From: Takakia lepidozioides
Lineage: Eukaryota > Plantae > Bryophyta
Assembly: GCA_030704615.1 (NCBI GenBank)
Contig: CM060732.1
Location: forward strand, 35,650,001-35,714,000
Reading direction: 5' to 3'
DNA: 64,000 bases
The position numbers were made by a program, and so were the translations under genes. Shown here in pieces: positions 1-40,745 of the stretch. The notes below the pieces were generated by a model. The model ran no database searches, was not told the DNA's origin, and saw only the letters and a list, made by a program, of their open reading frames with translations. Each line of letters opens with the position of its first letter. Positions within the stretch are counted from its first letter, which is position 1.

Positions 1-18
1 CAAATGACTTCATTTGTC

Positions 19-806: not shown

Positions 807-2270
807 CTATCCAATGCATTGTGGACATAACTAATCCCCATCCGGAACCATCTCAAGAGGTGGAGTCAAGCATCCCATATGCCAACCTCTAGAGCATCGA
901 TCACACACCAGCATTGTGGCTGCCCCTTTAGCAGACCCACACAACATGCACCTCAAACCTGTAGATACCACTGCCAGGTTTGGGTCAATCTTGCCATCGA
1001 CATTCGGAAGGTGACATGGCGCACAATTACGCACATGGTCCTTCCAAGTTATGCCATCCTGACCCTCCAAGACCAAGACGCCTGAGGGCAAGACCTCTCG
1101 AACCCTCAAAATAACACGTCCTGCAGTCACATCCAGGGTCGTAGCAGCAGTCTGCTGCAGATAGACATAGTCACCAGGGTTGAATCTCCGAACCCCAGGA
1201 CGATAGCCCCCACCACGTATGGTAGCATACCTCAACGTATCACGGTGTTGTGCAATGGCAAGGTTCTCGAAAGCCATGGGCATGACTCTCTTGAACAACT
1301 CTACACGCTGCTCACATGCATGTGCCCACACGTCCGGATCGTCAAGGTTAAGAACTGTAGCAGCTTCTCTGCGAATGGATGTAGGCAAATCCGGCTCTCG
1401 GCCAAAGAGAAGAAATTATGGTGAGAAGGAGGCAAGTGATGCTTGCTTGCTGAACCTGTAGCCCATGGCTAACCAGAGTAACTGAAGGTCCCAATCTCCT
1501 AGGTGTCCCTTCTGCAAGCCATACTTGCGCAAACCCCTCTTTACTGTCTGAACAACTCTCTCTGCCAAGCCATCGGCTTCAGGATGATCCCGAGAAGTGG
1601 TGCGGTGGTCTATCAAGGCCTTGTCACACAAAGCCTGAAACTCCCCCAAGAACTCTCTCCCTTGGTCCGTGAGTACCTCAGCTGGGGCACCGAATCGGCT
1701 AAGCACACAATCCAAGAATGCATACGCAGCTCCCTCACTAGCCTTATCAGGCAATGGAACCAATTCAATCCACTTGGAGAAGTGCTCCACCATCACCAAC
1801 ACGTACTTGTTGTGGCGCATGGTCAGTGGCAACGGCCCTGCGAAGTCAAGACTCCACCTGTAGCCCAATCCCATGATCGGAAGAGGGTGCAATTGTGGAG
1901 TAGGGGCGTTGAATGAAGCACGCACCCTGTCACACACCATGCACCTAACCACAAATTGTTGCACCTCTGTGTGCATACCACGCCACCAATACTGCCCCTG
2001 CAGTAGACTATGAGTGCGTCGCACCCCAAAATGCCTCAACTCCTCATGGGCATGCCGCACTAACCGTGCCCGCTATGTTGGGTGAGGCACAATCCTCACT
2101 CGACCATCCTCCCACACTCGGAGCAGGTGTGTCCCCTCCCACTTGAACCTCTTGGCTCGTTGTAGGATCCGATCCCTCTCCTTGGTAGTCACAGTGGCTG
2201 TAGTGTCTCCAGTGCGGAGGTAGTCCAACACAACTGAATCCTCATGTATATCTTTGGCGCCACCTTGCTC
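807..2270 (-). pseudogene. Integrase (H2C2 Zn finger, rve DDE core) with C-terminal PHD finger
   Basis: HEELRHFG..CMVC, WSLDFAGP, VLTDQGREF, DGLAER; then CMLC..VCDRCSRGWHMGCLTPPL..(W>stop)LCPQC. Stops at 2073, 1416 and 831. Confidence 0.93.
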
Positions 2271-3946
2271 ATTGCTGGCCTCAGGGTCCTCAGATACTTG
2301 ATCTACAGTCATCCCTGTTGCAGGTCCAACCTGGCCTTCCGCTGCCAAGATACACAGAAATGCAGATGCATGCCATCCGGGCACCATCTCCTCGTCTGTC
2401 TCACCATGCCACCGAGCTCCAGTGTCATCCTGCTGGCTCGTGCATGGATTGCGACTCAACCCATCTGCATTGCGATTGACCAAACCCGGTCGATGCACCA
2501 CCTGAAAGTCATACTCTTGAAGGATGAGTGCCCACCGTGCAAGCTTCCCCGTAAGCTTGTCTGACTCCATCAACCACTTGAGTGGTTGGTGATCCGTGAC
2601 AAGGGTGAAGAGATTGCCGTATAGATAGCACCGGAAGTGTGCCACGGCCCACACTACAGCTAAGCATTCTCCCTCATATGAGCTATACTTAGACTCTGCA
2701 GCATTGTTTGAGCGGCTAGCATAAGCCACTACGAACTCTCTTCCCTCATCATCCACCTGTGTGAGCACCGCTCCAAGCCCCAGCATGCTCCAATCGTATG
2801 CAGCTGAAAAGGACGCCCCCTGATAGGTCATCTCAAGATGGGCACCGAGGTCAACCTCGCCTTGAGCTCTTGAAAAGCTTGTTCTTGCTCATCTTCCCAC
2901 TGCCACTCCTGGTCCACCTTGGTCAGCTTGGTTAGAACCTTTGCAATGGCACTAAATCCCTTAACAAACCGTCTGTAATAGTTTGCTAACCCCATGAAAG
3001 CTCGAACTCGGCTCACATCCGTGGGGCGTGGAACCTGTGCAATGGACTCTACCTTAGTCTGCTGTACCCCCAATCCTCCAGGATATATCATGTGACCCAG
3101 ATACTCAATCTGGTTGTGGAAAAACTTGCACTTGCCCGGATGTAACTTCAATCCGTGCGTCCTCAAGCGCTCAAATACCCCCTGAAGGTGTCTCTCATGC
3201 TCCTCCACCGTAGCACTAAAGATGATGATGTCATCTATGTAGCACCGAGCAAACTCCACCCCTGCTAGAATCCTGTCCATGACTCTTTGAAACTCAGCGG
3301 GAGCGTTTTTAAGCCCAAATGGTAAGAACCGCCACTGGTATAGGCAATCCTTCCCGTGCTCATTGATCCCCCAGAATGCCGTCTTTTGCTTATCCGCCTC
3401 CTTGATCGGCAACTGGTGATATCCGGATCATAAATCCAACGTGCTAAAGACCTTGGAATGCCCAATGGCATCAAAGATCTCCTCTGGTGTCGGCATGGCA
3501 TACCTATCGGACTTGGTCTGACGATTTACAGGCCGGTAATCACCACACATACGTCTCTCCGTCCAATTGCCATAGATATCTTTCTTGGCTGGCATCACTG
3601 TGGCTGAAGCATACTCTCCACCAGAGAGCTCCACCAAACCTGCCTCCCAGAGATCTTGAGTCCTCATCTGAATCAAAGACCTCTCCATGTCACTGTATAT
3701 ATAGGGTCTCCGAAAGATTGGCGTGTCAGTGGCCAACTCAATACGGATCTCTTGACCCTTCAGTGCTCCCAAGTCCTTCAAACTGAAGGCAAAGCAATTC
3801 CTGTAAGCCCTCAGGAACCGCCGTATACGTCGTCTCTCTCCTCCGGTGACAATGGGTCCAATGTCAGGCTCCCAATTGTCCTCCGTAACTGCAACCTTAA
3901 GTCCAGTGGGCTGTAGAGGACGTGTCCCGTAGTTGCTATGCTGCAA
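2271..3946 (-). pseudogene. Reverse transcriptase and RNase H of the Gypsy pol
   Basis: RMCGDYRPVN, STLDL*SGYHQ, LPFGLKNAP, CYIDDIII, VAYASR, ECLAVVWAV, LVTDHQPL, ADGLSR; contains internal stops and frameshifts. Confidence 0.95.
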
Positions 3947-4102: not shown

Positions 4103-5334
4103 TCATGTGTGCCATGGATGTCTACACCCCGTGGTCCTCACCGGTTTGCCCCCACTCGCTGCCTGTACCGTCTCGGTAGGCAAAGAGACTGTCAAGGGAA
4201 GTGCACTCCGCACTCTACGTTGCTCAGCCATAGCCAAGCTGATAATCCAGGTCAAGCAATTGAGATCCATTGCTTGCCCCAACACCTGACGACGTGATGC
4301 CTCAGAAAGAGAAAGCACCGCCGTGGTCCCAGTGGAAAATCCCATAGCCCGCTCTCGCTCGTCGCATTAGGCTCCACAAACTGTTGCAACTGAGCATCCC
4401 ACAGGAGGCCAGGTCCACCATCCCAAAAAGCATGGGATCCTGGGAAGCTGAGCAGTGTAGGTAATGCTGCTTGTGGTTGACCCACCCTGTTGACCACTGC
4501 CAAAGGCGAATGGTCATCGTGTCTCACACGTTGAGACTGCCTCCCTGTGTCCAAAATGCCATCCATGGTGAGGTGTGCTGACCGTTGCACCCCATCAAAT
4601 GCACGCTTGAGCAGTGCGGGGGGCATCAAGTTAGTCCACCAAAGCCGTGGACGATGAGCCCGTGACCCCACTGCAGCTGCATCCAGCAACGCTGCTGACC
4701 CAAGCCACGACCGGACTTGATGCACACTGGCCATCACCCTGGCCCGAGAATCACCCATCAGTGGCACATTCTCCAAGATGTATGCTGGAGATACAGCTTG
4801 ATGAAGCTGCAAGTGGCGCAAAACCCGCACCATCTCCCAAAACAGACCCGTCCTCAAGTCTCGCAATCCATTGCCATGCCCGGCTGATGAATGCCCTTGG
4901 CAGGGCCAACCTGCCACTACCAGATCAATGGAGCCAACCTGCTCTAAATCCGGCGCCCCCAGCAACGAAATGTCTGCTGGCAAGGCTTGTTGGTATCCAC
5001 GAACTGTAGACACTGGCAACAAAGCAGGGTACTGCTGTACCAATTGAGCAACATGGCGCAGTGAGACGCGTCGTGCAGTCTCATCCCTCTCCACATACAG
5101 GTAACGCCTTACTTGCACACCTGCCTGTAGCACAGCAGCCAATCCGGTGCTGATCCCGCCAAACAAGTCCAGAAGGCAAATGCCTTCATTTGGATACTGC
5201 CACACAATAGGTGTGGTATCCAATGGTGACAACTGAGGTGGTCCTGGTGCAATACCCGCACTCTCCTCCTCTACTGACGGTACAAAAGCCTCTACCCAGG
5301 CTTGTTGCACCCGTTGATCAGCAACCTGCTGCAA
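4103..5334 (-). pseudogene. C5 cytosine DNA methyltransferase domain (Dnmt3-like) within the retrotransposon polyprotein
   Basis: Motif I LDLFGGIS, II YVE, IV DLVVAGWPCQ (Cys codon 4900-4902), VI YILENV, VIII AHRPRLWWTNL; after a 1-nt frameshift at about 4364, IX ERERAMGF and X RRQVLGQAM. Confidence 0.93.
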
Positions 5335-6126
5335 ATCCTTGGGGGGTTGCTATTCCATGAGCTCATGAGCTCATGAGCGGGCATGGCTCACCCATGAGCC
5401 GCAAAGTAACACACTTCGAATTTCGGCAAATTTTTTCGGGCCCAAAACTATAAAATAATCGAAAATCAAAGATTTCCGCGCTCATGCTGGAAGCACTCCG
5501 CTCATGAGTACCAGTGTACGCTCATGACTTGGAGCCCAGGCTCATGGACCGCCAGGCCAGGTCATAGAAAAACTGAATTCTGGGCAATAACGGCACCGAA
5601 ATTATCCCAGAGGCAGAGACGCAAGCGGAATTAGGATCCGGGTTTGCAGACTCCGAAAACACAATGGCGACCTATAACCGTGGATAGTACTGTTGCAGAA
5701 GTGCAGGATGGTTGGGTATAACGACGCCGTAATTGGGCACAGGAAAAGAAATAGCCGACTGAAGGCTCAGGAGTGAAGCCAACAACGGTGAAAGTAATTG
5801 GGCTCCACCAACCAAATACCCGGCTGCATCCTCCGGAATGCAGGCGATAACGGCGCCAAAATGGGCCCCGAAAACCAAATACTTGGCTGAAGCTACCGGA
5901 GTGCAGCCGATAACGGCGCCGAAATTGGGTCCGGAAACCAAATACCCAGCTGAAGGCTGGGGATTGCAACCAATAACGGTGCCGAAATTGACCTGCGGAA
6001 ACAAAATTCTCGGCTGAAGCTTCCGTACTCCATCCAATAACGGCGCCGAAATTGGGCTCCGGAGAGCAAATACCCGCCTTACGGTAAGGGAGGCCTTGCT
6101 CTCATTTTGCTCTTCACTCTTCTCTG

Positions 6127-6726
6127 TTGTGCCCATCTCCTCCCTGCTTTGAGTTCGTGCTATGTCGTGAGGCCATGTCGTGCCCGAATCACATCTATCG
6201 ACGCCAGACGGGAGTTATTTTCCCGAAAGCAGACGACATCATTGTTTTCCTGGATGTTTACAGGGACGATCCTCGACTTGTCCAGCTGAGAGCAATGGAG
6301 TTTCTTCCAGGATTGCACGATTCTCCTGGACCCCGGCTGGGGAGCAGGTGGTTCCTACGCATCATGGACCTGGACTTTCCGCATGAGTGGGAGCCGAACA
6401 GATCACGCACAGCGTTGCTGTATCGCTGGAATTGTTGCGAGTGGACGTATAATGAGTGCATAGGTGAAAACTTTACGCGTGGACGGACTGGCTCGGAAAG
6501 TGGGGACATTCTCTTCAGTTATGAGGATGAGGAGGAGGGGAACACAGGGCCCACTGTGAAAATGTCCTTCTACCAAGGAGGCGCTATCGATAAACACGAC
6601 ATCCTCGTTAATTTCAACCGGGCGACAGAAACCACTGACATTTTGTTCAAATATAGGCACCCGGTCATTGAGGAGGTCCTTGAGAGGCCAGTTAGAGTTC
6701 CTTCTTCTTGGGCGAGGGGACCATAG
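6127..6726 (+). CDS. Hypothetical protein carried by the MULE-like element
   Basis: 199-aa open frame with protein-like composition; no recognised motif. Confidence 0.4.
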   Translation: MCPSPPCFEFVLCREAMSCPNHIYRRQTGVIFPKADDIIVFLDVYRDDPRLVQLRAMEFLPGLHDSPGPRLGSRWFLRIMDLDFPHEWEPNRSRTALLYRWNCCEWTYNECIGENFTRGRTGSESGDILFSYEDEEEGNTGPTVKMSFYQGGAIDKHDILVNFNRATETTDILFKYRHPVIEEVLERPVRVPSSWARGP

Positions 6727-7408
6727 GTCTTGCATGCTAGAGTAGACATGTTTCGACTCGCCGACACTCATGGCACATACATTTTCATTCAGAAATCAAG
6801 CAGCTTCCCTGTGCCATATGGGAATATACATGCTTGGATAATCTTCTGTTAAGGTTTTTTGCAATTCACTGCCAGTATGCTGGGACGTGTCCTTTGTCGT
6901 ATGGATTGCTGTTTGCACAAGGTGCAGTATGCAAATGCTGGAATGTGCAGTAGGACCCTTCCCACTGGGACACAGAACTAGCAATCTTGTAAAGGCATCA
7001 CATTTGCAGAACAGTAACAATGTATTTGTAGCAAATTGGAGTCTTGTCATAAAGGTGGACGAAAACGCCAGGATGGGCTGCGAAATCACTACAAATTGAA
7101 TGAAGAGCAGTAACAAGGAAGCACTATGCAGTACACAGACCATAAACGGTGCTGAAATAGGTCTCAATGCCCGTTAATCTCCACACAATGTATGCTTTAC
7201 TCGGATCCATTTGTAGACAACCAAAATAAAAAAAGCATGCGCATGCCATTCATGGCCAAAAACCACATTCTCATGTATTGCGGCACCGAAATTCACATGT
7301 AGCCATGGCGATGCGGCACCACCAAGTGTATAATTCCTCACAAAAAAATAGGGTGCAAGAAGATGAATGTAATATAATTGCCACTTTCTCCTTCCCGAAT
7401 GTGGAATG

Positions 7409-7828
7409 TCAAGCAGTCCGACCAGTATCCTGCCGTAGGGCCTTGTACAGCTCGTTGAAACTCAGTGTTGGAGCATGGATGAAGACGTCCACTGCGGATA
7501 TGCAACTCATGCGCTTCAGAAAAATGTAATAAAGGTGTTTGCAGGGGACGTATGCTGCATTCTTCGATTCCATAACAAGGAAGTCCTCACAGTTGCAAGC
7601 TGGGTACTGTGAAACCGTGATTGTATACACGACACTGCGCGCAGCAGACCCGGCTGTTGACAACTGAAATATGCGCCCCATCCCGGGGTGAGGAACATCC
7701 CTGCAACCTTGCACTATGCAGGGCATTGCAATAGCGTTGGCCATCCTGGTGTCGTTCGCCTTTGTTGGTGGCCGCCGTCTTTTCAGTTTCCCCCACAGAT
7801 GGGTGGGCCAAGCTGCGGGGTCACCCAC
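7409..7828 (-). CDS. SWIM zinc-finger protein fragment
   Basis: YTITVSQYPACNCEDF..PCKHLYYIF fits CxC-n-CxH. Probably continues upstream (7821-8060) across a frameshift. Confidence 0.75.
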   Translation of the reverse strand: MGDPAAWPTHLWGKLKRRRPPTKANDTRMANAIAMPCIVQGCRDVPHPGMGRIFQLSTAGSAARSVVYTITVSQYPACNCEDFLVMESKNAAYVPCKHLYYIFLKRMSCISAVDVFIHAPTLSFNELYKALRQDTGRTA

Positions 7829-8149
7829 CGGTATGCGGGGCGAAGAGCTTCTCGTGGGAGGAGGATGACGACTGGGAATTGGATTTCGTGGAACGTATTT
7901 TAGCTTTCAGAGAATCAGGATGGAAGTTGACGTTTACCCAAACACGGGAGTCCATGTTGAAGACGGGACCTCTCGGTACGCTCCGCAGCGAAGTCCTGCA
8001 GTGAGAAGAGTGTGTCCTACCTAATAACACAAATGATTTTCTGGAGGATTCTGTATCCAACAGGATGGGTGATCAGTGCACGTAAAGATGAAGGTGTGTA
8101 ACGTACGTTACAAAAACGGACGACAACATCAAGTTCACATCGGATATTT

Positions 8150-8601
8150 GGTGCCTGAATTGTAATGTACAACCACTTGGGCTACAATAAATCAGGCCTT
8201 CCCATGAATTTCGGCACCGAAATCTGGATGAACATCTCTGTCATGTAACAACTTTGGAAGCCAGGGGATGAATTCCGGCGACAGAAATCGTAATTTGTTC
8301 ACCTCATGAAACTGACCAAGCACCCAACGGATGGATTTCGGTGCCGAAATTCGGATGAACATCTTCTTCATCAAATTGTTTCTGCACATGAGGGTTGAAT
8401 TTGGATGCCAAAATACGGATGAATGTGTTCCTGATTACAGTCGTGATTCACCACATGTCCGGATATTGGTGCCAACATCCAAATGACAGTAATCCTGAAT
8501 CGGCAGAATGGATGTATTTCGGCGCCGAAATTCATTCTTCTCTTTTTCCGACCCTAATTCTGCTGCCCTGTGGATGGATTTCAGTGCCGAAATTCATCTG
8601 A

Positions 8602-8645
<44 letters not shown>

Positions 8646-9840
8646 CTTTGCAACAGATGAACTTCGGCGCCGAATCTCATCCAAGTACTCCCTTCTAATT
8701 TTCCTTTTTCTTCGCGAGCAATGAATTTCGGCACCGAAATTCATCCGAAGTCCTCCAAAAAAAAAAAAATTCTTCGCGAGCAATGAATTTCAACGCCTAA
8801 ATTCATCCGAAGTCCTCCCCAAATTTATTTTTTCTTCGCGAGCAATGAATTTCGGCGCTGAAATTCATCCGAAGTCCTCCCGAAATTTTTTTTTTCTTCA
8901 CGAGCTATGAATTTCGGCGCCGAAATTTAACCGATTCCATCCCTCCAAATTTTTTTCAGGGTTTGAGCGCCGGATTTCGGCGCCGAAATTCATCCAATGC
9001 CCTCCCTCCAATATTTATTTTTCTTTGAAAGGGATGAATTTCGGCGCCGAAATTCGTCCAAACCCGACACTTATTTTTTGCTTCTGGATGATATAATTTT
9101 CCGTAAATCGTTGGAAATACCCCGTTCCGACGAAGATAACAGGAATATTCTGCATTTAATGGAGAAATCGGCATATTGAACCCCTTCTGTCAAAATTAAT
9201 TGCATTTTAGCCGTTTTTTTCATTTGAAACTGACAGTATCCATTAAGTGGTCTTTTTCGCACGGGACGTTGCCGCACATAAAGTATAATTTCGGCGCCGA
9301 AATTATAGTTAAATGTCCACAAATGGCAAGTCCAACAGGCATGGACAGCATCCGTCAGGGGCAATGATGGCGGCAAAGCATAGCATGGTGCCGATTTAGT
9401 CTTCGCTCTAGATGAATTTCGGCGCCAAAATATGGATGATTTCACCTCGTCTACGCGCGGATGGAGATATTCGTAATGAATTTCGGCGCCGAAATATGGA
9501 TGAAATGTGCCCAAGTGCAGCCGTTTCCACTGTCTCGGAATTAATTCCGGCTCCAATATCCCACTGACAGGTTTGCTCATGACGGATGAGGACTTGGGAA
9601 GCGATGAATTGCGGCGCCGAAATTCGTAAGTTTGTGTATGAAAGCACTTGAATAAGATGAATTTCGGCACCGAAATTCATCCATCCGCTGATGAAACGTA
9701 CCGACCTGACTGTTGAATGTCATAGGCAGGGGATTTTCATGGCGGTTGGGTTTCATGATGTGCGGATATTTCATTCAATGCCGGCTGCTCCGAGAACAGC
9801 ATCCGATGAACGGAAGGTATTTCGGTGCCGCAATTCGGAT
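8150..9840. repeat. Dense array of the palindrome (G)AATTTCGGCGCCGAAATT(C)
   Basis: Many irregularly spaced copies, e.g. 9036-9055 and 9657-9682; further copies at 5590-6060 and 12245-12525. Confidence 0.9.
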
Positions 9841-10347
9841 AAACTGTCTTGTACTGGTGGCTGGAACTGGCACGCGTCGTGTTCCAGTCGACTTCATCCG
9901 TGCGAACGTGTCAGGGGTCACAATCTCTTCATCACCCATACGGCAAAAAATGTTGGACGGTGGCAACGCTTCGGGAGACGTGACTGCTTACGCATCTGCT
10001 CGTGCATAGTGGTTGCATGTTCCACCGCTTCGCTCTCTCGCTCCTTGCCCTTCTGCAGTGACGTTCTCCTGCGTTTCCTCTCCTTATGCGGCATAGTGGT
10101 AGCATAGAGTTTGTAGAAGGTCAGGCGACTCCGGCAAAGAGAAAGAGGACGTGGGATTTTGGGAAGCCGCCGACGACACGACTTAAGCTCCGTTTCATGC
10201 ATGAAATGCAGACCTCGTTATCCGGAGACTCGGATCGCCCACCAGTGAGAGATTCGTGCTTTGCGGATGTGAAGCACTCCATACGCAATATTCCTTTTAC
10301 ACCTTTTTTTTTGCGTGCAGTGTCTCATGTTTTCCTGTTTGTTTGAC

Positions 10348-11998
10348 ATGGAAGCTGGGGAGGGATCGCAGGGGGGCGAGGCAACACAGTCAACTTTGGA
10401 TACTCCTGCCCGGGTGCTGCGCTCGAAAGGTGGAAGTGCATCGAGGCAGGCGAGTCCTCATTCAACACCTCAGATATCGCCTCAGAAAAGCCCACCTAGA
10501 GTTCGGAAGCCGAGGAAGCAGAAGGAGCCCATGGCTTCGCCAGTAAAACCCCTAGGGCGACTGGAAGCGGAGATATTGGGTTTGCAGTCAATTTCAGAAA
10601 CGGATGCGGTGGAGGCCGCTGGAGATGTGGGAGTTGGATCTGCAGAAGGGCGGCCCATTGAGCTGACAGAAGGAGAGGACGACAACGTGGTACGACTTGG
10701 CGACGATCAGAACCTGCTGGAGCTTGCGGAGGAGCAAAACCTCCAGGACATTTCCTTCTCTACAGACTCGTATCTTTCAGGCATTTTGCTTTGTGAAGGA
10801 ACATTCGAAATTCATATTACGTGAAGCAGGAAGACTTGTTGATTCCACAGTTGATCCACTAGAGTATAACGTCCTGTTCAACCATGTGGGAGAGAAGGAC
10901 ATTCTTTGTGATTTGTCGGGCAAGCCATGGAGGTATGGCAGGACCAGGAGTCCTGCATTCATCCAGACGCTCATGGAAACATGTACAGATGTTGAAGGCA
11001 GGGTCCGCGACGTCATTGCAAATACAGGTGAGAACGTTAATTGAATGCGGCACCGAAATTGACACCATTTCCGTTTGTGTATGTTTGCTTGTGCGAGGAA
11101 GCGACTCATTCTTGAGTTTGGCTGTGGTTGTGTCGTATGAATTCGCAGGTGCCTGTATGTGGGCGGGAAGGATGTCGAACCGATTTGTGTTCTCATTTGA
11201 GGGGGATACGGCCTTGTACGATTACAATTTGGCGGGCCTTCAGCGTCTGCCTCCGACCGAGGATCCCAAAAACGTAGAAGATGACGTGGAAGGGGAGGAG
11301 GAAGATGAAGAGGAGGAAGTCCAGGAAATTCGTTCGATGCAGGGGCGCCCGAAGCCGCTTCCCCCAATGCCTGTCTTCGAGTGAGTTGCACCATAGTAAG
11401 TGTATTGGTTTCGGTTGTAGGGACCATGCAACCTGCCGATGATTCCCTGTTTGAATTCTCTAATGTACTTCATTCTATGTTTGTGCGTACACTCAGCCTT
11501 GCAGAGTCGTCCGACGAGGAGAAGCTGGGAGACTTGCCCGAATCGGACCCTGTTGCAGAGGAGGAGACAGAATCGCATCGGCCATTCTTTGCCAGAAAAT
11601 CGTTTCTCGCGAGTCCCCAGAAGCCCTTTTTTCTACCAGCCTATGCAGACACGGCTGCCAAAGAAGCCATCAGGAGGGAGGATAGGCCTACTCGGTTAGA
11701 GCAATTGACATACGGGAATGAGAAGAGAATTATAATGAGGCGTGAGGCCAAACATAGAATTGTGAAAGGCAGAGTAGGGAAGTTCGTAATAGAATCCGTG
11801 TCCGAGAGCGAGGGGAATGTTGAGGACACCTCCGCACCCAGGTGGACAGTTCCGGTTGGTGAGGATGGTATTTTTGAGGGGAGGGCTTCTCAGAGTAACA
11901 GCGGTAGCGGCAGTGCAGGTTCGGAGGCAGGTGGAAGGCAGCCATCCTTGCATGAGGCCGGGGATGCATCGGACAGTGATAGCGGATCCTCACCATAG
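10348..11998 (+). CDS. Probable spliced or degenerate acidic low-complexity gene within the MULE-like element
   Basis: Consecutive coding-like frames separated by short GT-AG segments (about 11028-11148 and 11381-11420); one apparent frameshift near 10760. Confidence 0.4.
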
Positions 11999-12690
11999 CG
12001 AAGTCTCATTTGGATCCTTTTGTTGTACAGTTCTGAAACACTTAATGAAAATATTGACGATTTGAAAAATCATTGTGTTCAGACTGCTTGTCCGATTCCC
12101 TACATTTCTTCCGCCAACCAAAATGTATAATAAAAGCAGAAGAGACGCAAACTTCAGTGAAGAACCCTACAAGTAATTTATGCACACCATCGAGCCGAGA
12201 ACTTGAAGCCATGAAAACCCTGCCGTTTCTAACATTCCTATTGGGAAATTTGGCGCCGAAATAGCCCAGTGCGCGCCTTCGTTATATGGGCCTCAAAAAT
12301 TCCACGGATGAATTACTGTACCAAAATATCGCGATGGAAGCCTTTAGCACAAGGCACTTCAGCACATTCCACTTGGGTATTTTGGCGCCCAAATAGCCCG
12401 TTCTGCGCCATTAAATACCGCACTATATCACATTTTAAGAGGTAATTTCGGTGCAGAAATACCCCGGTGGATGTCTTCAAAACACCATTTTAGCATACTT
12501 CTCTTGGGAATAACGGCGCCGAAATACCTCATTCCGCATCCTGGACCAGGAGAAACAGACCCTATTACCGAGGTAAGAGGACATAACACCGTCAATAAAG
12601 GCAGGAAAATTCCAATTCCGCAGATGCCCGCTCATGAGCTAATAGGCTCATAGGCTCATGGGCTCATGCGCTCATGAAATAGTAAACCTC

Positions 12691-13600
12691 AAATCCTTGC
12701 TCGTACCCCACAATGGAGTGTGAGCAACCAGGGCAGGCAACTCCGCCATACCATGCATGTCATCCTGTTCTGCTGGAGGTGGCACATCTTCTGCATGGGC
12801 ATTGCCTTCCAGCAACTCTCCAGGCCAACTAATTGCAGCTGTAAAGGCGGCTAGTGTTGGCATGTTGCCTCGCTGGGCAGCCGCAATACCCCCAATGAAT
12901 GTCACAGGGAGCTGTGCACGACGACCATCCCCTGACTGCCATCCAGGCCTATAGAATGCTGACTCCTCCCAAAAGTCCAGGGTGAAGCCCATGGGGTATA
13001 ACATTGCCTTACCAACGAGGACATCGTAAGAAACCGCGTCTGTCACAATGGCCTTGGCTCGCATTACTGAGCAATCGATAGGATGATCCGGCTACAGTCT
13101 AATGGCCAACTGATGCCGTGTCATGCCCCGAGCCTGCTCTGATCCTCCCAGAGATGTCTGTATCTGGAAAGGACAAGGCTCCATATCCGCCTCGATAAGG
13201 CCCAAACCTGCAATAGCAGCTCTGCCCAACATCAGTGGCTGAGCTCCCGAGTCCAACAAGACCCGCAGTGGCCGATACTTCTTGCCTGCCGGTCCACTCA
13301 AAGAGAAAATATCATCCTGGTTGTCTAACAAGACAACTCCAGGTGTCACCATGGCGCGCTCAAAGGCTGGCCTAGCTGGCAGCTCCGTCAACCTGGCAGC
13401 TGCAGCTTGCCAGGGCCCAGCCGTGGCAGTCTTGACCCTCAAATCCAAGGATCCCTCTGCCACTACACCTTCTACTAACTCCGCAGAAGATGAAGTGACC
13501 TCCCCACTCTCACAGAGTGTTGCTGCTAGTCTGAACACTGCAGCTGGTCTTACCCCGGCGTCGCAATCATGGTTGCCGAGAACAGTGGGGCTTGACACAC
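12691..13600 (-). pseudogene. Aspartic protease and linker of the polyprotein
   Basis: VLLDSGAQPLMLG ... YDVLVGK; stop at 13092. Confidence 0.85.
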
Positions 13601-13635
13601 AGAGGTGGCTGCCCCCAATAACACACCAACTACAC

Positions 13636-15492
13636 TAGCCTTGGTAGCAGGTGTCAGTGCTGCACGTGTAGCTCTCCCCAATGGCATAGTACCCTCCGCC
13701 TCGGTAACAGTCGGGCGAGAACTAAGTGCCATGGATGGCGTTGACATTGTCTCCGCCAAGGTGAATGACTGAGGCAGCCTTGCCTGACGGCTTGCCTCCC
13801 CACGTTGTGGATCCAACTCCACCTCTGCACCTCGTGGCTCAGGAACTCGTGCTGCTCCTCGAGTCACGGCTGCAGCAGACTCCACCTGCTCTAGTGGTAG
13901 TGCTGCTCCGCACATGAATCCCATGCCTCCCATATCTCCTCCCTCAGGAGTAGGAGGTGGACCATCCGCCTGGGAGCCGGTACCGCCTGAGCTATAGCCA
14001 TGGCAGCGAGCCTCTGCTCTAGTTGCTGAAGCCGATTGGCCATGCCTTGGTCAACACCCTGACCTCCGCGTCCTTGGCCATGTGGAGCTTGCCCTTGGCC
14101 TGCACCTCGTGCCCGACCACCTCGTCGTCTTTGGGCTGGTCCACCTCGCCCCCGGCCACCGTTATTCCCTTGGAACTGGCCTGGGCGCAACTCAGGATGC
14201 AAGTCATAACACTGGGCATCTCCATGCCCATACTTGCCGCAATGCCCACACTGCAACTATGCAGGCTGTGCTTGTGCCGGCCTTTTGCCACTCTCTGGGC
14301 AATCTCTCTTGACATGGGGTCCTCCACATGTCCAACATATCACCCCTGGTTGCTGTTGGCCTGCAAAAGATGCCACGGGCCTTTGCACCTGAGGTCCCTT
14401 GTAAGCTCCATGGAACTTGGGCTGGGCAACCTTGCCCCCCTGACCACGCTGTTGGGCAGTCCTTTGTGCCTGTGGGCTGACAGCTGTGCCCCGTGCAGGC
14501 ATGTCCTGGCCAAATCCAATTGTAACAACTCGCTCCTCCACCATGTTGAGCTCAATCCGCTCAGCCAGCAGAAACACATTTGCTAATGTGGGTTGGGCTA
14601 CTTGTAACAGGGTTGCATCTCGCACCCTTCTCTTGAGCTCCTTGTCCAGAATTCCATACCAAAACTGGATTGCCTGAGCTTCAGTAACCCCTTGGGTCAC
14701 ACTTATCAAGCGCCTCATATGAGTGTACGCCTCTCGCAGACTCTCACTAGGTTTGCGCTGGAAGTCTTGCAAACTTCGCAGTTTCTCTGTCCGTATACCT
14801 TGGTAGTTCCTCCGCAACTCCTGGAAGAACTCCACCACCGGGTTGAATCTAGGCACATGTGTTGTAGTCGTGGGAGGAGGAGTAGTAGCACTTTTTGAAC
14901 TGGTACCACCTACAGAAGTACCAACACTACTTGCTCCACTACTAGTGCTGGCAGTGTGAGCTATTGGTACTAATGCAGCTACTGGTCGCGTCGTGCCTCG
15001 AGTAATGGAGACGTAGTCAGGTGAACAATACATCCTCCACTCCTCAATCTCTGCTTCATGTCCTTGCCTGAACTCGTGGTAATCGTCCATAGGCGGGCCT
15101 TCCAAATGCTGGAACAGTCCCTTCCACGCCATGAATGGGGTGAATAGCTGTGGATTGCGCATCTGCTACAAATCACACCAGCTGTCGAACTCCTGGATAA
15201 AGTCATCCAACTCGATTGTGCCCACAGCTCCAGAGTACCTACAAGGCCCCTTGGTAGCTCCATACATCTCCTCCATGTCGTCCCACAACAATGGCGAATG
15301 AAAGTGCATACCTGTTGATGAAGCCTCCGAGTCTGTGTCTGACTCTACAGTAATTGAGGGTGGCGGTGAAGGCGGTCTGAACCGAATACCTCGTCTTGTG
15401 AACCCACTCTCACTGTTACTGCCTGTAGCCGTACTCCCCTCAAAACCCTTGGGTAACTCCGTAATGACACTCACAATGTGCACCTCCTCCAC
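13636..15492 (-). pseudogene. gag with two zinc knuckles
   Basis: Retrotrans_gag-like LQDFQRKPSESLREAY; CWTCGGPHVKRDC and CGHCGKYGHGDAQC; stops at 15166 and 14257. Confidence 0.85.
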
Positions 15493-16011: not shown

Positions 16012-16761
16012 CTATGCTATCAACTTCCAGACTTCTCTCAAAGTGCCTCGCTCTGCTTGATGATAAGGTGTAGGAGGTATATCTATGTCCAGAAACCTGC
16101 CACTAACCTTGTCCCAAGCTACAGTAGCTTGCTCTAACCAACCCTCCTCCTCTTTCTGCCAGGTAGAGACAAAGCAACACTCTGCTATCTCCCGCTCACT
16201 GAACACTAAAGAAAACAAAGGTAGGGTTTGATAGTCTCTCAACTCGAAAACTTTGAGATGGTTGCGGGTGTCCTCATTGCGAATGACTGCATCTCCTTCA
16301 AACAGAACAAACTTGTCCTCGCTAATGAACCCCCGCTCGTGGTTGCCTTGTGCAGAGCGTGTCCGGCTGCAACGTTGTCTGATTGCACAAACTTGTGTAG
16401 CTTCTGCTCCTCTGCTCCAGTACACCACAACCTTGTGGCTGAACACCTTGGTCCCCGGGGCTGTCTTTGGCTGTGTTCCAAGCCTAGCTTTCACCCACTT
16501 TGGTATTTCACCTACAGCTGCAGAACTGCTAGCTCCAACAGAGTTCTGACTGTCCAAGGCGTTATTGAGGCCCTCAATGCCAACTACAGCAGTATGTTGT
16601 CTACTGCTAATGCCTGACTCCCAGTATGCAATCAACTCGTCCAACTGTTCTCCACTCAAATCAGTCTGAGTTCCTTGGGAAACATAAATCCTGTCCCCTT
16701 GTGTGCACAGGCTAAGAGAAGAGACCTGCCCTTCAATTACGTCCTCATTTCCCCCAGCCAT
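16012..16761 (-). CDS. Additional intact ORF (249 aa, unknown function) upstream of gag
   Basis: Uninterrupted ATG-initiated ORF in element sense orientation. Confidence 0.6.
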   Translation of the reverse strand: MAGGNEDVIEGQVSSLSLCTQGDRIYVSQGTQTDLSGEQLDELIAYWESGISSRQHTAVVGIEGLNNALDSQNSVGASSSAAVGEIPKWVKARLGTQPKTAPGTKVFSHKVVVYWSRGAEATQVCAIRQRCSRTRSAQGNHERGFISEDKFVLFEGDAVIRNEDTRNHLKVFELRDYQTLPLFSLVFSEREIAECCFVSTWQKEEEGWLEQATVAWDKVSGRFLDIDIPPTPYHQAERGTLREVWKLIA

Positions 16762-18128
16762 GCAAGGAGGACATCCACAGATTTGTCTCTCAAATAGACC
16801 AGAACAGGTTCTAGAAACAAAATTGTGGATCTTTCACGGCACACTCACACTCTAAAAATTCCATAGATTTTTAGCAGAGTCCCAAAAACAAAAACCAGGT
16901 CTAGCTAGGTAGATATCCCCTTTCTGCAGCTATCCCCCCAAAAATTGAGTCAATTTGACAAAGTTATGACCAACCAGGCTCTAAATCATTTAAATTAGAT
17001 CAAAGTTTTTATTTTTATAACACCAAAACGTTCCCGCCATTAAGAACCGTTCCCAAGTTTCATTTGTGGTTACGGGTGCACCACAGGCTCGCTCTCTTAG
17101 TGAGCTGCTTTGCTCCAGCGACGACTCTCGAGCTCGGGTGTATGGTTGTGGCGATGGCGATGGCCTGTGCAGCGTCAGGCATCTGTTTCCCGTGATGCAA
17201 GTACTCGAGCCATCCCTAATGTAGGGACAAGCCCTGATGATACTCTGTCAGAACCTGGTGGGCAGCTGCCATCTGCACTTGCTCTCTCTTCAGACAATCT
17301 TCGGACCTAGTGTCAAATGTGGAAGTGGTGAAGGAGTTTATTGACAAAGGCAACTGTGTTGGACTATCCAGAGAGTAGAGAGTAACCAGATCAGCTTCGT
17401 CATTTTGTTGAAGCTTGGAGCATAGATCTGCATACTTCGATAGGGCAAGGCACTATCTCAATTCAGGTAGCGATCATGTTCAATGTAGGAGCATACCCGA
17501 TAGCGGTATACTGATCCACCGCAACATCCCCGTTGGACTTGTCTGCAATGTTCCCTGCAGCTTTGCAAGCTCGTGTACCGAGTGTCTGGCCAAGTTGGGC
17601 AGCAACAACGTTCAAACTGGCCACAAAATTCAAGGTTGGATAACCACTCACTCCATATCTCGGTGACAGTCTCCTTCATTCATCTGTGATTTGGGAAAGA
17701 AAAGCGGCTGCAGATCTCCTAACAGCTCGTTGCTGGAAACCATTATGTCCCCCAAATGGATGCAAAGGTCACAGGTCTCCTCTGTCTCTGAGCTATGTTG
17801 GGTGGACTTGCTGGAGGGAAAGGTTGCTGGTCATTCCAACTGACACCAAGCATTTCAGTTCAGCCTTCTACCCGGCCGGCGCTGCTGTTGCTGTCCTCCC
17901 AGCCAATGTCCCCAACCCCGTGCTTGCAACCCTACGCCACCACGCTACCTCCCTGCAGCTCCAACACATGATTAGAATCCCAGTTCTTCACATACACCGC
18001 CATCCTCCGAATTCAGATGAATACCAGCATACTGGCTCGCACATTGCACATATTGCGTCTTCCACCGAAGATAGAATAATTATTGGTGAAGGTGAGTATC
18101 AATCGTATTCCCTGTCTCTTGGCTTCAG

Positions 18129-18735
18129 CTACCACAAAGCCGAGTGCATCCCTTCCATTTCACCATGTTTGCTTGAGCGTGGAGCGGGAGCTTGAGCGTG
18201 GAGCTTGTAGAGCGGGAAAGCTTGAGCTGAGCAGATGAGGTGTTTCCTCACTTCCTTGGTCATAACTGTCATATAATGAACACTCCATTGGCCGTGTTGA
18301 AGAAGCTTAATCCATGCAGCTTCAGCAGCACTCAGGTAGATAATCCGCATGTTGGGTTGAATGTTTTCAACACTGTAAGCGGGCTTTTTGCATCGTTACT
18401 CTTCTTCGATTCTTTCGAGATAACCCGTGATGCGGAGCGCGATGTTGTGCCATGGCTGCCAGAGCTCCCTTTCCCGTACACTCTCCACTGCTCCTCACCT
18501 TCTTTCTACAAATCGCTTCTCTGTCTATATTGCTTTAACAAGGTCTGGATTTGTCACCATTGGACTGACCAGGTACAGCAAAGGCTATAGAGCAATCTGC
18601 CTCTTGCGGTGCTCCTGTACAGTTGCAGTTATAGCGACGCACCGAGTGCCCAACTTGCAACAGCTTTGCAACCGCAAGCGTTTGTTCCCTTGTCACAACC
18701 ACACTCTTGCATGCATGTTGCATACAGTCTTCCAC
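18129..18735 (-). pseudogene. Possible decayed second extra ORF in the element leader
   Basis: Coding-like frame broken by TAG/TGA/TAA codons, each reachable by a single C>T change. Confidence 0.3.
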
Positions 18736-18935
18736 CTCCGGAGAAGAAGTCCAGGGACAGAGTTACGGTTGTCAGCAGCTACCAACAGACACAGTCTTCC
18801 TTACATTTGCGCATCATCTTGCTGCTCCACCAGCCTTGTCACAAACATAATCTACCATAATTTTCTTCTGTCACTTCCAAAACAAAAAACCACAAGTGCT
18901 AAACTAAACTCACCTCTGGCACTCACAGATGCAAG

Positions 18936-18950
18936 TCATCTCTCTCGAGT
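18936..18950 (-). promoter_or_regulatory. Candidate self-priming primer-binding site
   Basis: Perfect 15-nt reverse complement of 19138-19152 within repeat B; no TGG-type tRNA PBS here. Confidence 0.75.
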
Positions 18951-19304
18951 GATTGAGAAAGCTAAGAACACACACTCTCAACACAAGAAATATGAAATCC
19001 ATCGCTATCACTATTTGAATTAGTAGTCGAGCCAGGGGCACCCCAAGCTATGGGGACTCCACCCCACAACAACCTACACTCCCATCATGAGTACACTCAG
19101 ATCTAAACGCATGCAGGAGCTCGGTCGCGCAGGCTCAACTCGAGAGAGATGAGCCACGCGACTGCCGCTCTCGTGAAGATAAGGCCGTTCAGGTGTCAAA
19201 CTAAACTTGACACCTGATTTAACACTTGACCTAAATCCAAGTGTTAAATACAAATAACTAGCTTTATTCTAGTTGTTTTCACACTGTGCTTATTTAACTT
19301 GACA
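18950..19304 (-). repeat. Terminal repeat B, 5' copy
   Basis: Direct repeat of 106-460; not accompanied by an A copy. Confidence 0.95.
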
Positions 19305-24500: not shown

Positions 24501-27500
24501 ATGTTAACAAGTAATATATGAGGAGGGTCCTTTGAAAGACACGGTTGTTTGTTATTTATATGTGGAATTCTGGTTGTGCACTACATGATAGATGCAACGC
24601 AACAACATGGGTTGGCTGTTGTGGGGATACTTCTCAAGCTTTTGTAGCACCTACAGCAGGTAGCAGGGTTTTGCTTTTCTTCCTGCTTTTGTTGTTTTTC
24701 TTTGTTTTTCTGTCTTAAGTTCGAGTAGTTTAAGCAGTCAATGAAAGGTGCTTAAGGTTTGCAAATAATTTATTTATTCCGTAGGATGGAATCTTCTCAG
24801 ATTCAAGATTGGATTGGATTGTAAGGAATCTCTGCATTTCAGTATGGTCTGTGATTGATCATGCTTTTCTATACCTTCTCTCTTGCTTTTGTTGCTTTTC
24901 TTTGTTTTTCTGTCTTGAGTTCGAGTAGTGTAAGCAGTGGAAGGACAGAAGGTCAAGTGCTTAGGGTTTGCAAATAATTTATTTATTCCATAGGATGGAA
25001 TCTGCTCAGATTCAAGATAGAACAACAATAGAACAATAGTGGAAAGAAAAGGGACGATTCTTCATGATTAGTTTGTTTCTTAGCTTTGGCTAGTGTTAGG
25101 GAAGTGACGTGCGGTTAACGCCTTTGAAGGTGGGGTAACTTTATTTTCATACTTGCCCTGATCTAGACACCCAATGACAATGCAAATCAATAATTCTATT
25201 GCCGTCGCAAGTGTGCACCGCAGCACTATAGTTCATTACTGCATGTTAGCCACACCTTACCGTGGGCCCAGGTTATGTAGATTCTTGGCACCTTGACTTC
25301 AGAATCTTTGCTTGACTATGACCTGTTGTTCTACGAGCCCACATACTCATGCAGGTATGCTTTAGGACCGTGTAGGCGAGATTCTTCCGGAGCTGTTAGG
25401 GTTTCGTGCTAAAATGTGTTTTGCTAGCTCTTTGAATGTCCAAGTTTTCCAGACTTAGAGGACTATTATTTTCTTAAGGTCGGTCAGATTGCGGCAGATG
25501 AGGGCAGGTTTAAAGTGTTCTGCGTTCTTGTCTTCTTTTCTCTTCGGTGTGTTACGTTTTCCCAGTCTATATACATTGGCTGTCACTGTTGTGGTTCTTG
25601 CCAAGATCCAGGTAGGGTACATGTATTGGTTGTGCAATTGTTGGTGTTATGATGATTGGCTGTAAGGCCAACCAGAATCTTTTGTCAATATGACCATGGT
25701 GGGTTAAGTTTATGTCACCGTACAACTTCTCCCAGTAAAGCCTCTTCTGATCCCTTACAAGCTGATTGACCTCTTTACGCAGTTGGTAGTATCTAGACCA
25801 GAGCATTTTTTCATCTTTGATATTACAGCAGTCCTTATAGAGCGCCTGCCTCTCAGCAATCTTGAGCTTGATCTCATGGGTCCACCAATTTACTGCTCTA
25901 CCACAGATAATTAGTTTCCTTCCATGACTCTATCAGCAGCAGAAGTGGCAACGCTCTCCCAAGAATCTACAGCACCTTCTACCTCCCTCCTTGTATCACC
26001 ATGGGCAAGAGGAGAGATCTTGAAGTGACTGTGTAAAGTGTGGGAGGGTAAAAAGTGGACTAGAAAGTGTTAGCAATTCTTGTTCCTGGGTGAGTCCTTG
26101 GCAGACACGGTTGCTTGTTATTTAGATGTGGAATTCTGGATGTGCACTCAGGGTTGCGCTCTCTTGGCAACTAGGTGTGGTGTAAGTTTCTTCGCTGTGT
26201 TCACCCATCAAGGTGTCAAGCTAGTGCATCACGTGATGCAACTGTCGCATGTTGATGTCCAATCCAGCACCTTGGACATTTTATTTTGTCATTTCAGTGC
26301 ATGTTCCACTATGTTGAAATCTTGTTTTGTTTTTACAAGCACCTGATCCTTGTGGTGGTCTGAGTTTCTCAGGGCTCTGCGGCCTGAGTTTGCTGATAGT
26401 GAGGTTCACGTACTTCGAGTATGTCATCACCAGATCATTTGCTCCTTTTGAAGAGGAAATGATAATATTAGTTCTCAAATGCCAATGAGCAGCTTGTCTT
26501 CTAACCCATTCCTTCGTCAGGTACCCCCAGAGTTGACAATACTTTATCCATTCGGAAGGACATAGTTGAGCAGCGTGTGCAACTTTGTGAAGTGGATGAG
26601 CTGCGGGGATTGTTGGAAATGGAATTGAAGGATGGCTTACGATTTCCCGTTTCTTTGAATATGTGGAACTCTTTGCCGACGAACAGGGACAAGTTGTTCA
26701 AACTAGCTGGACCTGATGAAGAGTGTTATAAGATTGTTCCACTTGTGAATGCTATTGTGGACCCTCCAATGCCTGCACCCACTGCTGATACAGAAGATTC
26801 TTTTCACTACCTTTGGGACACTGTTATTGATGAATCACTTAAGTTTTTCTTTGATGGCCCTTGGCTGGCAGAGCGAAACAAGTCTGGTGAAGGGAGTAAT
26901 AGTGGAACAAGGCCCCACAAGGTCGTTAGGTTTGGTTTCCGGTTCTATGCTTTGTGGAGAGGGGAAGAGAAAGGCCCTACAACTGCTGGTGATCCAAGAA
27001 AGGAATTGATTTCGAAATTGGACTGGACGTATAAATATCTCCCCTTTCTCATGGCGTACTATGCGAGGGCAGCCCTAGTGACATTCTGTGTGCTATATGT
27101 GGTTGTGGATCCACATGGAGGATCCATGAACATGTGCCGTGATCTCATTCAATTCAATATATCAAATGCAAAGGAACGACTTAAGCTTGTACTGGCCTGC
27201 ATAACTATGGCGAAGTTGCTGAAAACAATGGAAGAGGTTTGCGAAGGAAAGGATGAAGTGTCGGATATGCCTCTCATACGGAGGAACAGTGGAAAAGTTA
27301 TTCGTCCATGTGGGAGGAAGGTAGAGAAGTCCTATCCAAATGAGGCTTTCTACAGGGAAGTTGTAGCCATCTATGAGGCGACGACATCTTGTCCAAATGT
27401 GGAACTTTTTTTGCATAGAAGGGATTCAGACCGAACTATTGTGGTGCAGAGGGCTGTGGTTACAAAACCAAAGAACCATGACGAACTGATGACCTGTCTC

Positions 27501-27863
27501 CGATGTTTGTGTGAAGCACTGCAGTGGTTGCACAGAAAAGGACTCGCGCACAGAGACATCAGGTGGGAAAATGTTCTTCGCGACAGGAATAATGCTGAGA
27601 AATGGGTACTAGTGGATCTTGATGAGGCAATAAAGACCGATCAGTGCTTCAAGCTCCACCGTCTAGATTCCAATTCACATGCTCCAGAGATGACAGTTGG
27701 GCCTCATGATACCATGGTTGACATCTGGGGCATTGGGTACCTTTTGTCTACTTCAAATATTATTCTGGATGCGAAGCTTCTGGGTTTGATGGAGAAATGC
27801 AAGCATCAGGTGCCAGACCAAAGGCCAACTGCAGCAGAGTGTCTGGAGTTGCTTGATGCATGA
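21534..27863 (+). CDS. Crinkler-like protein: helical/SAM-like header, REase-fold domain, protein kinase (exons 21534-21777 and 26521-27863, about 528 aa)
   Basis: In-phase GT-AG intron; TEDSFHYLWD..RPH..WRGEEK..LPFLMAY; HRDIRWENV, LVDLD, HAPE, DIWGIG. Confidence 0.8.
22599..25930 (+). repeat. Near-tandem duplication of about 1.47 kb (22599-24067 and 24474-25930) in the intron, including LINE linker fragments on the minus strand
   Basis: High nucleotide identity; duplicated ORFs 22905/24774 and 23704/25567. Confidence 0.9.
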
Positions 27864-28312: not shown

Positions 28313-29499
28313 GTCCATGTCGGGTTTCAAATCTTCATCTGATTTTTGTTACGTCTCTTGCTTCTTGGTTGAACAGTGTTGTGTTTGTCTTCGCATCCTA
28401 CTTTCTTTGTGGGATTGTTGGTTATGGAAACCATGGTTGATGGTTTAGGGTGTCAGATAGTGCGTCAAGGAGGGAGTCTGGTGAGTGTAAGTTTGTAGGG
28501 TTTGCTACCAATGTGAAGAATGAGTTTTTGTTCTCTCTTCAGTACTTTGATGCATGTGACCTGCGAATCAGTAGTGTTGTTCAAACCTTTACGATTTCTT
28601 GAGTACCATCTTTAGAGGATATAAAGCTCTCGCCGAAATTGTGCGCATGTTTTGAGCTGTTAACAGTTTTATGTAGAATCTCAGGGGATTGCAGCCCAGC
28701 TCCCCCGATCAACATAGCGCATTATAAGGCCTCCTTCTGTTAAATGTTATGGTTTTGATACTCTATAAAAAAATACACTACCATGTCAAGAGTGTTAAAT
28801 GGTTATTTGTTATGACATCCTACTCTTCATAGTGTTAATGCACCTCCATAGTAGTTAGATTCCATAAAGACATACCCTCAAAATAGAGCATCCATTATGC
28901 CTTTCCTTGTTCCCCTGAAGTTACGAATTGGAAAGCGACGGCTCTCGTTAAGGGGCCGCAACGCCGCAATGGTGAGTTATGAGATATAACATAGAAGAAC
29001 ACTGATTGGTTATTCTATAGGTAAAGAGCACCATCATCGGCTTTTGAGCATGTAGATGGTAATCAGCATGTCAGCCACCATGTGCAGCCATTTTCAGTTG
29101 CAGAAAATTAGCTGCGATTACAACAGCCCATCAATAACGTGCCTTCAAGTTGTTATTTTAAATTGAGGTGCAAGCACCGAAGCCACTCATTCATAGCACA
29201 CTGATCTGTTTGTGATGACTTCTTCTATGATATGCAAATACTACGAGCTTATGTCTCTTGAGGAGAGGGCACACTCATGCTTTCATTGTTATTGCAGGGA
29301 CTGTTTTGTGTTGAGATGGATTGATAATCCGCATAAGTGTAAATTACAGTTGAGATCTAGCATAGGCTTAGATTTTGCAGTAAGGACCAGAAGATTGAGG
29401 TGCATGTGCTACAAGAAGTACATAATTTTTCCTGTCTGGTCATGCAGCTGCAAATTTAAGCTCGAGATTATCGAGGTGGAGTCAAGTTCTCGATTGCTG

Positions 29500-38835: not shown

Positions 38836-38874
<39 letters not shown>

Positions 38875-40708: not shown

Positions 40709-40745
<37 letters not shown>

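Follow-up and report, generated by a model that had tools for sequence, protein, structure and literature searches.

The window, a 64,000-nucleotide stretch of Takakia lepidozioides DNA, raises the question of whether a land-plant retrotransposon carries a DNA methyltransferase of its own and, if so, what the element would use it for. The copy found here is a Ty3/Gypsy element on the minus strand with a Dnmt3-like C5-methyltransferase (MTase) between protease (PR) and reverse transcriptase (RT) (Table 1). When two intact relatives were aligned to it by tblastn, the coding region from gag and protease through MTase to pol proved to be interrupted by several stops and shifts of frame, and small indels separate this copy from others at three slips, near 4363, 4027 and 3912. 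Because of these stops and frame changes, and because motifs IX and X of the MTase lie in a different frame, we call the copy dead. It is a dead copy of an old green-plant and algal family that carries its own DNA-methylating domain, and that domain is almost certainly a conserved, Dnmt3-like part of the family, related to the one in a Klebsormidium element.

Two of the assignments in Table 1 are accompanied by observations in relatives. The region equivalent to the window protease matches Asp_protease_2 below cut-off in relatives P0257 and P0208, and G runs precede repeat B1 also in the elements L011, L018 and L030. The second family copy in the window lacks gag, protease and MTase, its truncation falling inside RT; a family-less open frame of 619 codons (55335-57194, minus) adjoins its break. 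Between repeat A1 and gag of the main element (16015-18949, minus) lie decayed GH5 endo-beta-mannanase-like pieces, of which 18016-18159 matches a plant endo-beta-mannanase at E 4e-5, and an open frame of 273 codons (16015-16833, minus) without a Pfam match.

Table 1. Features of the MTase-bearing element, from its 5' to its 3' end, and of the second family copy in the window
Feature	Coordinates	Strand	Evidence or remark
4-bp target-site duplication, 5' side	19305-19308		bases identical to 15-18
Repeat A1, element 5' end, begins TG	18950-19304	minus	99.2% identical to A2 over 355 bp
gag, two zinc-knuckle-like stretches; stops and frame slip	13894-15405	minus	Retrotrans_gag E 0.0014 (below Pfam cut-off); tblastn of P0397
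Aspartic protease (DSG near 13259-13236) and linker; one stop	12690-13634	minus	tblastn of P0397
Nested insertion	5341-12689		inverted ends, 9-bp duplication
Dnmt3-like C5 cytosine MTase, motifs I-X; frame break near 4363	4226-5196	minus	Pfam, motifs
Conserved in-frame TAG (3938-3936) and CARYYA hexamer (3935-3930)	3930-3938	minus	predicted readthrough site closing the Gag-PR-MTase frame
RT and RNase H; stops, frame slip	2076-3919	minus	RVT_1 E 1.6e-26; RT_RNaseH E 1.7e-34
Integrase, zinc-binding domain and DDE core	1419-2072	minus	rve E 1.2e-14; Integrase_H2C2 E 7.7e-14
PHD finger behind integrase; broken by stop	849-950	minus	PHD E 9.5e-08
G-rich tract immediately before B1	550-562	minus	polypurine-tract-like (inferred)
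Repeat B1; ends CA, then 2-nt spacer, then TG of A2	463-549	minus	97.7% identical to B2
Repeat A2	106-460	minus	
Repeat B2, element 3' end, ends CA	19-105	minus	
4-bp target-site duplication, 3' side	15-18		
Second family copy, 5'-truncated, RT part to PHD	50738-54417	minus	90% identical; own B-A-B end

The MTase was recognized in the minus-strand frame 5349-4252, which matches Pfam DNA_methylase at E 5.8e-12. The first-pass annotation, made from the sequence alone, had reported C5-MTase motifs in canonical order, and this was confirmed throughout: motif I maps to 5166-5143, II to 5097-5080, IV (WPCQ) within 4929-4897, VI (ENV) to 4782-4765, VIII to 4668-4636, IX to 4360-4337 and X to 4294-4253, all on the minus strand. 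Motifs I, II, IV, VI and VIII share one frame, while IX and X occupy the neighbouring frame past the break near 4363. The domain is intronless, non-permuted and Dnmt3-related, with the catalytic residues present.

To what type does this enzyme belong? The best solved-structure match of the window MTase is DNMT3A (E 8e-9). A profile built from 22 sequences ranked DNMT3A first (2e-24), followed by a DRM-type entry (4e-17), M.HhaI (1.5e-10) and DNMT2 (about 5e-6), and none of its 57 matches was a DNMT1 or CMT entry. Membership in the DRM, MET1 or CMT classes is thus rejected, since the motif order is canonical, DRM ranks below DNMT3 and DNMT1/CMT are unmatched; the Dnmt3 likeness proposed earlier over these classes holds. 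The AlphaFold model of an uninterrupted relative, P0034 (68% identical), has a pLDDT of 93.7 and returned DNMT3A, B or C at every listed rank, with TM scores by target of 0.79-0.84 in the best ten. The predicted fold of this intact relative is that of a complete DNMT3-type domain.

Conservation of individual residues was assessed in 159 near-complete domains, a set gathered by similarity so that the sampling favours conservation. The catalytic cysteine is kept in 157 of them, as is the glutamate of ENV (157), and the two arginines of motif VIII are kept in 156 and 157. The proline of motif IV is replaced by glutamate (W-E-C-Q rather than W-P-C-Q) in 71 of the 159, with the catalytic cysteine retained.

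In the window the protease and the MTase are parted by a nested insertion of 7.35 kb with short imperfect inverted ends, flanked by a 9-bp duplication (5332-5340 and 12690-12698). It had been placed at 5342-12690; the insertion is real, and its limits are corrected to 5341-12689. The claim that the MTase continues in frame from the protease linker holds in part. Residues 576-882 of the intact relative P0397 match one side of the insertion and residues 881-1218 the other, and contigs from three of the four runs join 5331 directly to 12690, so that the insertion-free form exists as DNA; motifs IX and X, on the other hand, are out of frame in this copy. The insertion is likely Mutator-like. It contains a SWIM-like Cys/His motif near 7597, and its frames gave no Pfam match. 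Its CpG observed/expected ratio is 0.92 against about 0.5 in the surroundings, and internal tandem repeats of 62-65 bp occur at 5730-6056 and 8633-9074.

The ends of the element are split repeats in the layout A-coding-B-A-B. This layout is complete in L011, L018 and L030 as well, and B-x-B ends are found in L012, L014, L016 and the second copy of the window. Among the four complete elements a target duplication is clear in the window and L018, has one mismatch in L030 and is absent in L011. By inspection, no TGG start of a tRNA primer site follows A1 in the window, L011, L018 or L030. With the repeats split and no TGG start behind A1, canonical LTR retrotransposon ends are rejected. Membership in DIRS, Ngaro or PAT is likewise rejected, given the DDE integrase and the 4-bp duplication in the window and L018; no tyrosine recombinase was matched among the open frames scanned. 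The combination of DIRS-type repeats with Gypsy domains is described for KnitGypsy-Dnmt3 of Klebsormidium nitens (PMC5890265, Figure 4 legend). New here is the conservation of such split ends together with a target duplication. In the three loci of the chlorophyte type that contain RT (L020, L021, L023), split repeats are not evident. As a separate observation, CA and TG flank two bases at the internal B-A junction, which is near-palindromic (461-462 and 51231-51233 in the window; also L002, L011, L012 and L018) and resembles two integrase ends joined head to head.

The family is widespread. A total of 185 clusters of a representative protein library match at E 1e-30 or better. Named MTase relatives come from Marchantia, Calypogeia and Sphagnum, 57-68% identical in the best matches, and additionally from Closterium, Klebsormidium (GAQ93235.1, KFL_009030040), Mesostigma, Tetraselmis, Scenedesmus, Haematococcus and Tetrabaena; a Riccia relative was recognized through RNase H only. 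A domain census of 253 homologs, made with purpose-built profiles, found the MTase together with other retroelement domains in one protein in 137 cases, MTase-only fragments in 115 and a protease match only in one. Absence of the domain from other copies had been named beforehand as a sign against the first-pass interpretation; it is present in them. Two internal-deletion derivatives were also observed: L005 keeps gag-PR-MTase and the PHD finger without RT, RNase H or integrase, and L012 has the MTase immediately before RNase H in an MTase-RH-IN-PHD arrangement without RT.

The relatives show two domain orders, PR-MTase-RT and RT-RH-MTase-IN-PHD, and the named members of the second are chlorophytes. 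The MTase and RT trees part the two orders alike. In the rooted tree the RH-MTase-IN type nests inside the PR-MTase-RT type, and an AU test did not reject a PR-MTase-RT clade (p 0.187). A streptophyte-only distribution of the PR-MTase-RT order is rejected because Tetraselmis has that order. The spread over streptophytes and chlorophytes with two domain positions is new here.

In a tree of 55 rows, all 43 retroelement MTases clustered together (100/100), apart from 12 enzymes of prokaryotes or phages, with a backbone that lacked resolution; two Tetrabaena rows had been dropped for low coverage. Closest to the window MTase are Calypogeia, Marchantia and three proteins without a name (100/99), and the 43-row clade includes both K. 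nitens proteins as well as Closterium, Mesostigma and chlorophyte members. These nearest named relatives point to a bryophyte-grade land plant as the likely host. Nesting within host DNMT genes as a one-off capture, named by the first-pass annotation as a refuting result, was not observed: the nearest relatives are retroelement domains. The trees, containing no host DNMT3, address such nesting indirectly. The K. nitens element domains were placed apart from the host Dnmt3 of the alga, of bryophytes and of animals in PMC5890265. Judged by these sequence relationships, the window element is best placed as a member of the KnitGypsy-Dnmt3 lineage rather than as a separate land-plant invention. No close viral donor of the MTase was found in viral contigs, where the best matches reached 34-41% over short stretches at E 4e-21 or weaker. 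Seven prokaryote/phage-type MTases with DNMT3-like wording of motifs VIII-X (L031:135-1034, L032:860-1816, L036:3099-4139, L038, L039, L080 and L081) adjoin the retroelement clade with modest support.

Comparison between lineages reveals constraint on the domain. Against five peatland-metagenome copies (L001-L005) the window MTase has pN of 0.21-0.23 and pS of 0.73-0.77, and omega is 0.08-0.09 in the three of five pairs where it could be measured. In a second subfamily, omega is 0.20-0.52 for the MTase (36 pairs), 0.19-0.68 for RT (15 pairs) and 0.32-0.68 for integrase (10 pairs). The MTase is under purifying selection between lineages, and neutral evolution, a further adverse outcome foreseen, did not occur. 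Among the close copies L001-L005 themselves omega is 0.50-1.36 (10 pairs), which we read as post-insertion decay because most of these copies carry stops; such values fit decaying copies and are not by themselves evidence of constraint.

The MTase had been described as lying directly upstream of RT. It does lie between protease and RT, but a family-wide stop breaks the continuity. In the window this TAG stands about 115 codons past motif X and is followed by CAACTA, and it is in frame with both MTase and RT, by arithmetic, once the indels of other copies are applied. Across 3932-3940 no variant reached 3% in any of four runs (the largest with 1,320 contigs), whereas variation is seen nearby at 3923, 3928, 3931, 3941 and 3942; the change at 3931 preserves CARYYA. 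In L002, L003, L004 and L007 the stop sits directly in a shared MTase-RT frame, and in L006 it sits in the RT frame. The 3' context is CAACCC in L002, L003, L004 and L006, which is one base off the consensus (five of six bases), and CAGTTA in L007, which like the window family matches CARYYA in full. As a chance background, CARYYA follows 5 of 2,583 stop triplets on the window minus strand. Sixteen loci were examined for the stop; eight (the L009 group) lack it, and three are too short or deleted at that place. Similarly, the Klebsormidium protein P0332 and the Closterium and Tetraselmis polyproteins run through without this stop.

Protein databases show the same boundary. Of the close relatives that are unfused and include motif X, 20 of 23 terminate 71-131 residues past it, and RT-RH-IN-PHD frames of about 1,040 residues begin just behind the stop. 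Of ten full-length RT-IN-PHD proteins inspected in one cluster, nine begin 92-93 residues before RT. (P0402, a family RT-IN-PHD protein in the cluster of P0286, is labelled as an uncultured cyanobacterium in NCBI and is likely plant DNA in a metagenome bin.) In intact relatives gag, protease and MTase form one uninterrupted frame, so no candidate site for recoding was seen other than the stop behind the MTase. The env stop of the retroelement SIRE1 is a type I-like readthrough case. Tobamoviruses and other viruses use UAG-CARYYA as their type I readthrough signal (PMC5382211, PMC3542737). In those descriptions the polymerase of tobamoviruses, benyviruses and pomoviruses lies in frame behind the signal, as RT does here; the window site differs in being a predicted one that follows the protease and MTase of a retroelement rather than marking a gag-pol or replicase boundary. 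A stop conserved in this branch with a readthrough context is new here.

From its context and frame, this stop is quite likely to be read through. A real stop with RT-integrase made by reinitiation, from an internal start or by splicing seems improbable to us, and it would still leave the MTase on the Gag-side product. An ATG does stand two codons past the stop in L002-L004, whose context is CAACCC, but the first methionine past the stop in the window falls well within the conserved pre-RT segment, and five of the ten second-frame proteins start without methionine. The frame of RT agrees with that of the stop in L002, L003, L004 and L007, which speaks for readthrough, and the downstream RNA does not: folding 3' of the stop gave no shared structure, with one of four folds at z below -2. 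Splicing would find support in five database gene models in which MTase and RT are joined. Two of these could be measured: relative to the DNA spacing they are 38 and 60 residues short, and they skip the stop-bearing stretch; the stretches skipped by the gene models differ, however.

The first-pass annotation had called the MTase an integral pol domain rather than a passenger. Integral and conserved it is, but in this branch it probably fits better as the last domain of a Gag-PR-MTase frame than as a part of pol. On balance, we think that the MTase is probably made in bulk with Gag, would be packaged and probably methylates the element's own new DNA copy. Most ribosomes would stop at the TAG and yield Gag-PR-MTase, and the few that read through would add RT-RNase H-integrase-PHD. 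The protease would then free the MTase within the particle, where it could methylate cytosines of the cDNA (5mC) no later than integration, and the new copy would arrive marked; a premarked copy might be protected, or quiet enough for the host to tolerate. DNMT3 enzymes need an oligomer. Crowded MTase could supply it, which might explain the negative yeast test of the isolated Klebsormidium domain. Because the stop is not universal, bulk MTase synthesis is not needed in every branch. CpG observed/expected is 0.47-0.53 in the element and 0.47-0.61 in the rest of the window, and since the element equals its surroundings, CpG content cannot reveal self-methylation.

An active MTase might instead work on chromatin after or around integration, guided by the PHD finger and acting on the insertion, its flanks or other copies in trans rather than on particle cDNA. 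The PHD finger behind integrase in the window and most complete relatives would suit such a role, as would the chlorophyte order, with the MTase immediately before integrase, and the derivatives L005 and L012, which keep Gag-PR-MTase and MTase-RH-IN-PHD, respectively, without RT. In the present branch, however, most products would end at the stop with the MTase and lack integrase-PHD, and a domain placed last in the Gag-PR frame would suit packaging; we regard action on chromatin as unlikely.

The domain might also be kept for a non-catalytic or non-DNA role: it could bind nucleic acids, methylate RNA, contribute to the structure of the particle or act as a decoy for host silencing factors. 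Bulk synthesis would fit a structural role, and the motif IV proline-to-glutamate change in 71 of 159 domains points the same way, but the catalytic cysteine, the ENV glutamate and both motif VIII arginines are kept in 156-157 of 159, and the predicted fold is complete. In yeast, de novo methylation by the Klebsormidium domain was not observed, a result called inconclusive in PMC5890265, where human DNMT3B was negative in the same assay. Such a role is distinctly unlikely. Finally, a single capture of a host DNMT3 travelling as a neutral passenger is extremely improbable: decay is seen in the window copy and in most of the DNA copies retrieved, and one window fragment, albeit truncated inside RT, lacks the domain, but the same domain occupies the same place from liverworts to Mesostigma, has no introns, is colinear with intact relatives and has saturated synonymous sites at 60-68% protein identity, and the idea is contradicted by family-wide presence, purifying selection and a single clade of retroelement MTases.

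Returning to the packaged MTase, a broader scenario is at best tentative. A green-plant Gypsy lineage may have captured a Dnmt3-type enzyme once and moved it within the polyprotein, and a bryophyte branch may have put a translational switch behind it, giving capsid-level loading of MTase and pre-methylated cDNA. The CA-NN-TG junction would then reflect DIRS-like copying without a tRNA primer, completed by a DDE integrase, and self-methylation might determine which junction is cut. Retroviral dUTPase, an accessory nucleotide-modifying enzyme, is found beside gag-protease in some lineages and between RNase H and integrase in others. The two polyprotein positions across lineages are similar to those of the MTase; the enzyme is unrelated and the likeness is an analogy only.

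How does the element compare with known ones? Retroelement-borne Dnmt3 is itself already known, as the first-pass annotation stated for dinoflagellates and a charophyte: PMC5890265 describes SymbioDIRS-Dnmt3 of Symbiodinium and KnitGypsy-Dnmt3 of Klebsormidium. The window element shares with KnitGypsy-Dnmt3, as described there, the Gypsy complement of gag, PR, RT, RNase H and an IN of the DDE type, an intronless non-permuted Dnmt3-like domain, DIRS-type split repeats and purifying selection. The K. nitens protein KFL_009030040 (P0332), which we infer to be that element, has the order PR-MTase-RT-RH-IN, with an identity of 42% over the MTase and 44% over the RNase H region. The host differs, being a land plant here and an alga there; the PHD finger is C-terminal in the window family and none was detected in the partial P0332; and the domain lies in the Pol ORF according to PMC5890265, P0332 running through, whereas the window branch has its stop between MTase and RT. 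KnitGypsy-Dnmt3 in the strict sense, with MTase and RT in one uninterrupted ORF, is rejected for the window because a conserved in-frame stop intervenes. Thus, the window element is a variant of the KnitGypsy-Dnmt3 lineage and not the same element family. PMC5890265 reads the capture as an event of the K. nitens lineage, while the relatives found here span streptophytes and chlorophytes.

SymbioDIRS-Dnmt3, compared by its description in PMC5890265, also encodes a Dnmt3-type domain within its retroelement polyprotein, has A-B-A-B repeats and two domain orders, and methylates CG de novo in yeast; it differs in having a tyrosine recombinase and DIRS RT, where the window has Gypsy RT and a DDE integrase. 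Phygy and Selgy, again compared by description, are likewise non-chromovirus Gypsy elements of early-diverging land plants (PMC6317226). The main text of that plant LTR survey mentions no methyltransferase or methylase, nor does the main text of a liverwort genome paper mention a methyltransferase. A 2025 paper restates such elements as reported in streptophytes and dinoflagellates (PMC12344493). In the open-licence literature (PubMed Central, bioRxiv), neither the stop nor an MTase-Gypsy family of land plants or chlorophytes was found described, and the first-pass annotation had likewise been aware of no characterized land-plant family; trees in supplementary figures may include bryophyte members.

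The role of retroelement MTases is left open in PMC5890265, where the sole Gypsy example is algal and inactive in yeast. Intact Gag-PR-MTase frames occur in Marchantia polymorpha, a genetic model (for example Mp4g09160), so that the question can be addressed experimentally in a land plant, and the conserved stop predicts MTase at Gag-like abundance inside particles. The spread over the green lineage suggests, in place of a capture specific to one lineage, an old family whose members are annotated as hypothetical proteins or host DNMTs. Split ends combined with a DDE integrase are a replication puzzle in their own right.

Elsewhere in the window, kinase-like frames lie at 26505-27863 and 58179-58736 (both plus); the first matches Pkinase and Pkinase_fungal and has what we take to be a Crinkler-like appearance. 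A remnant of a DDE_1 (pogo-like) transposase occupies 29197-30588 (plus), and two tandem LINE-like RT fragments are found at 35577-40712.
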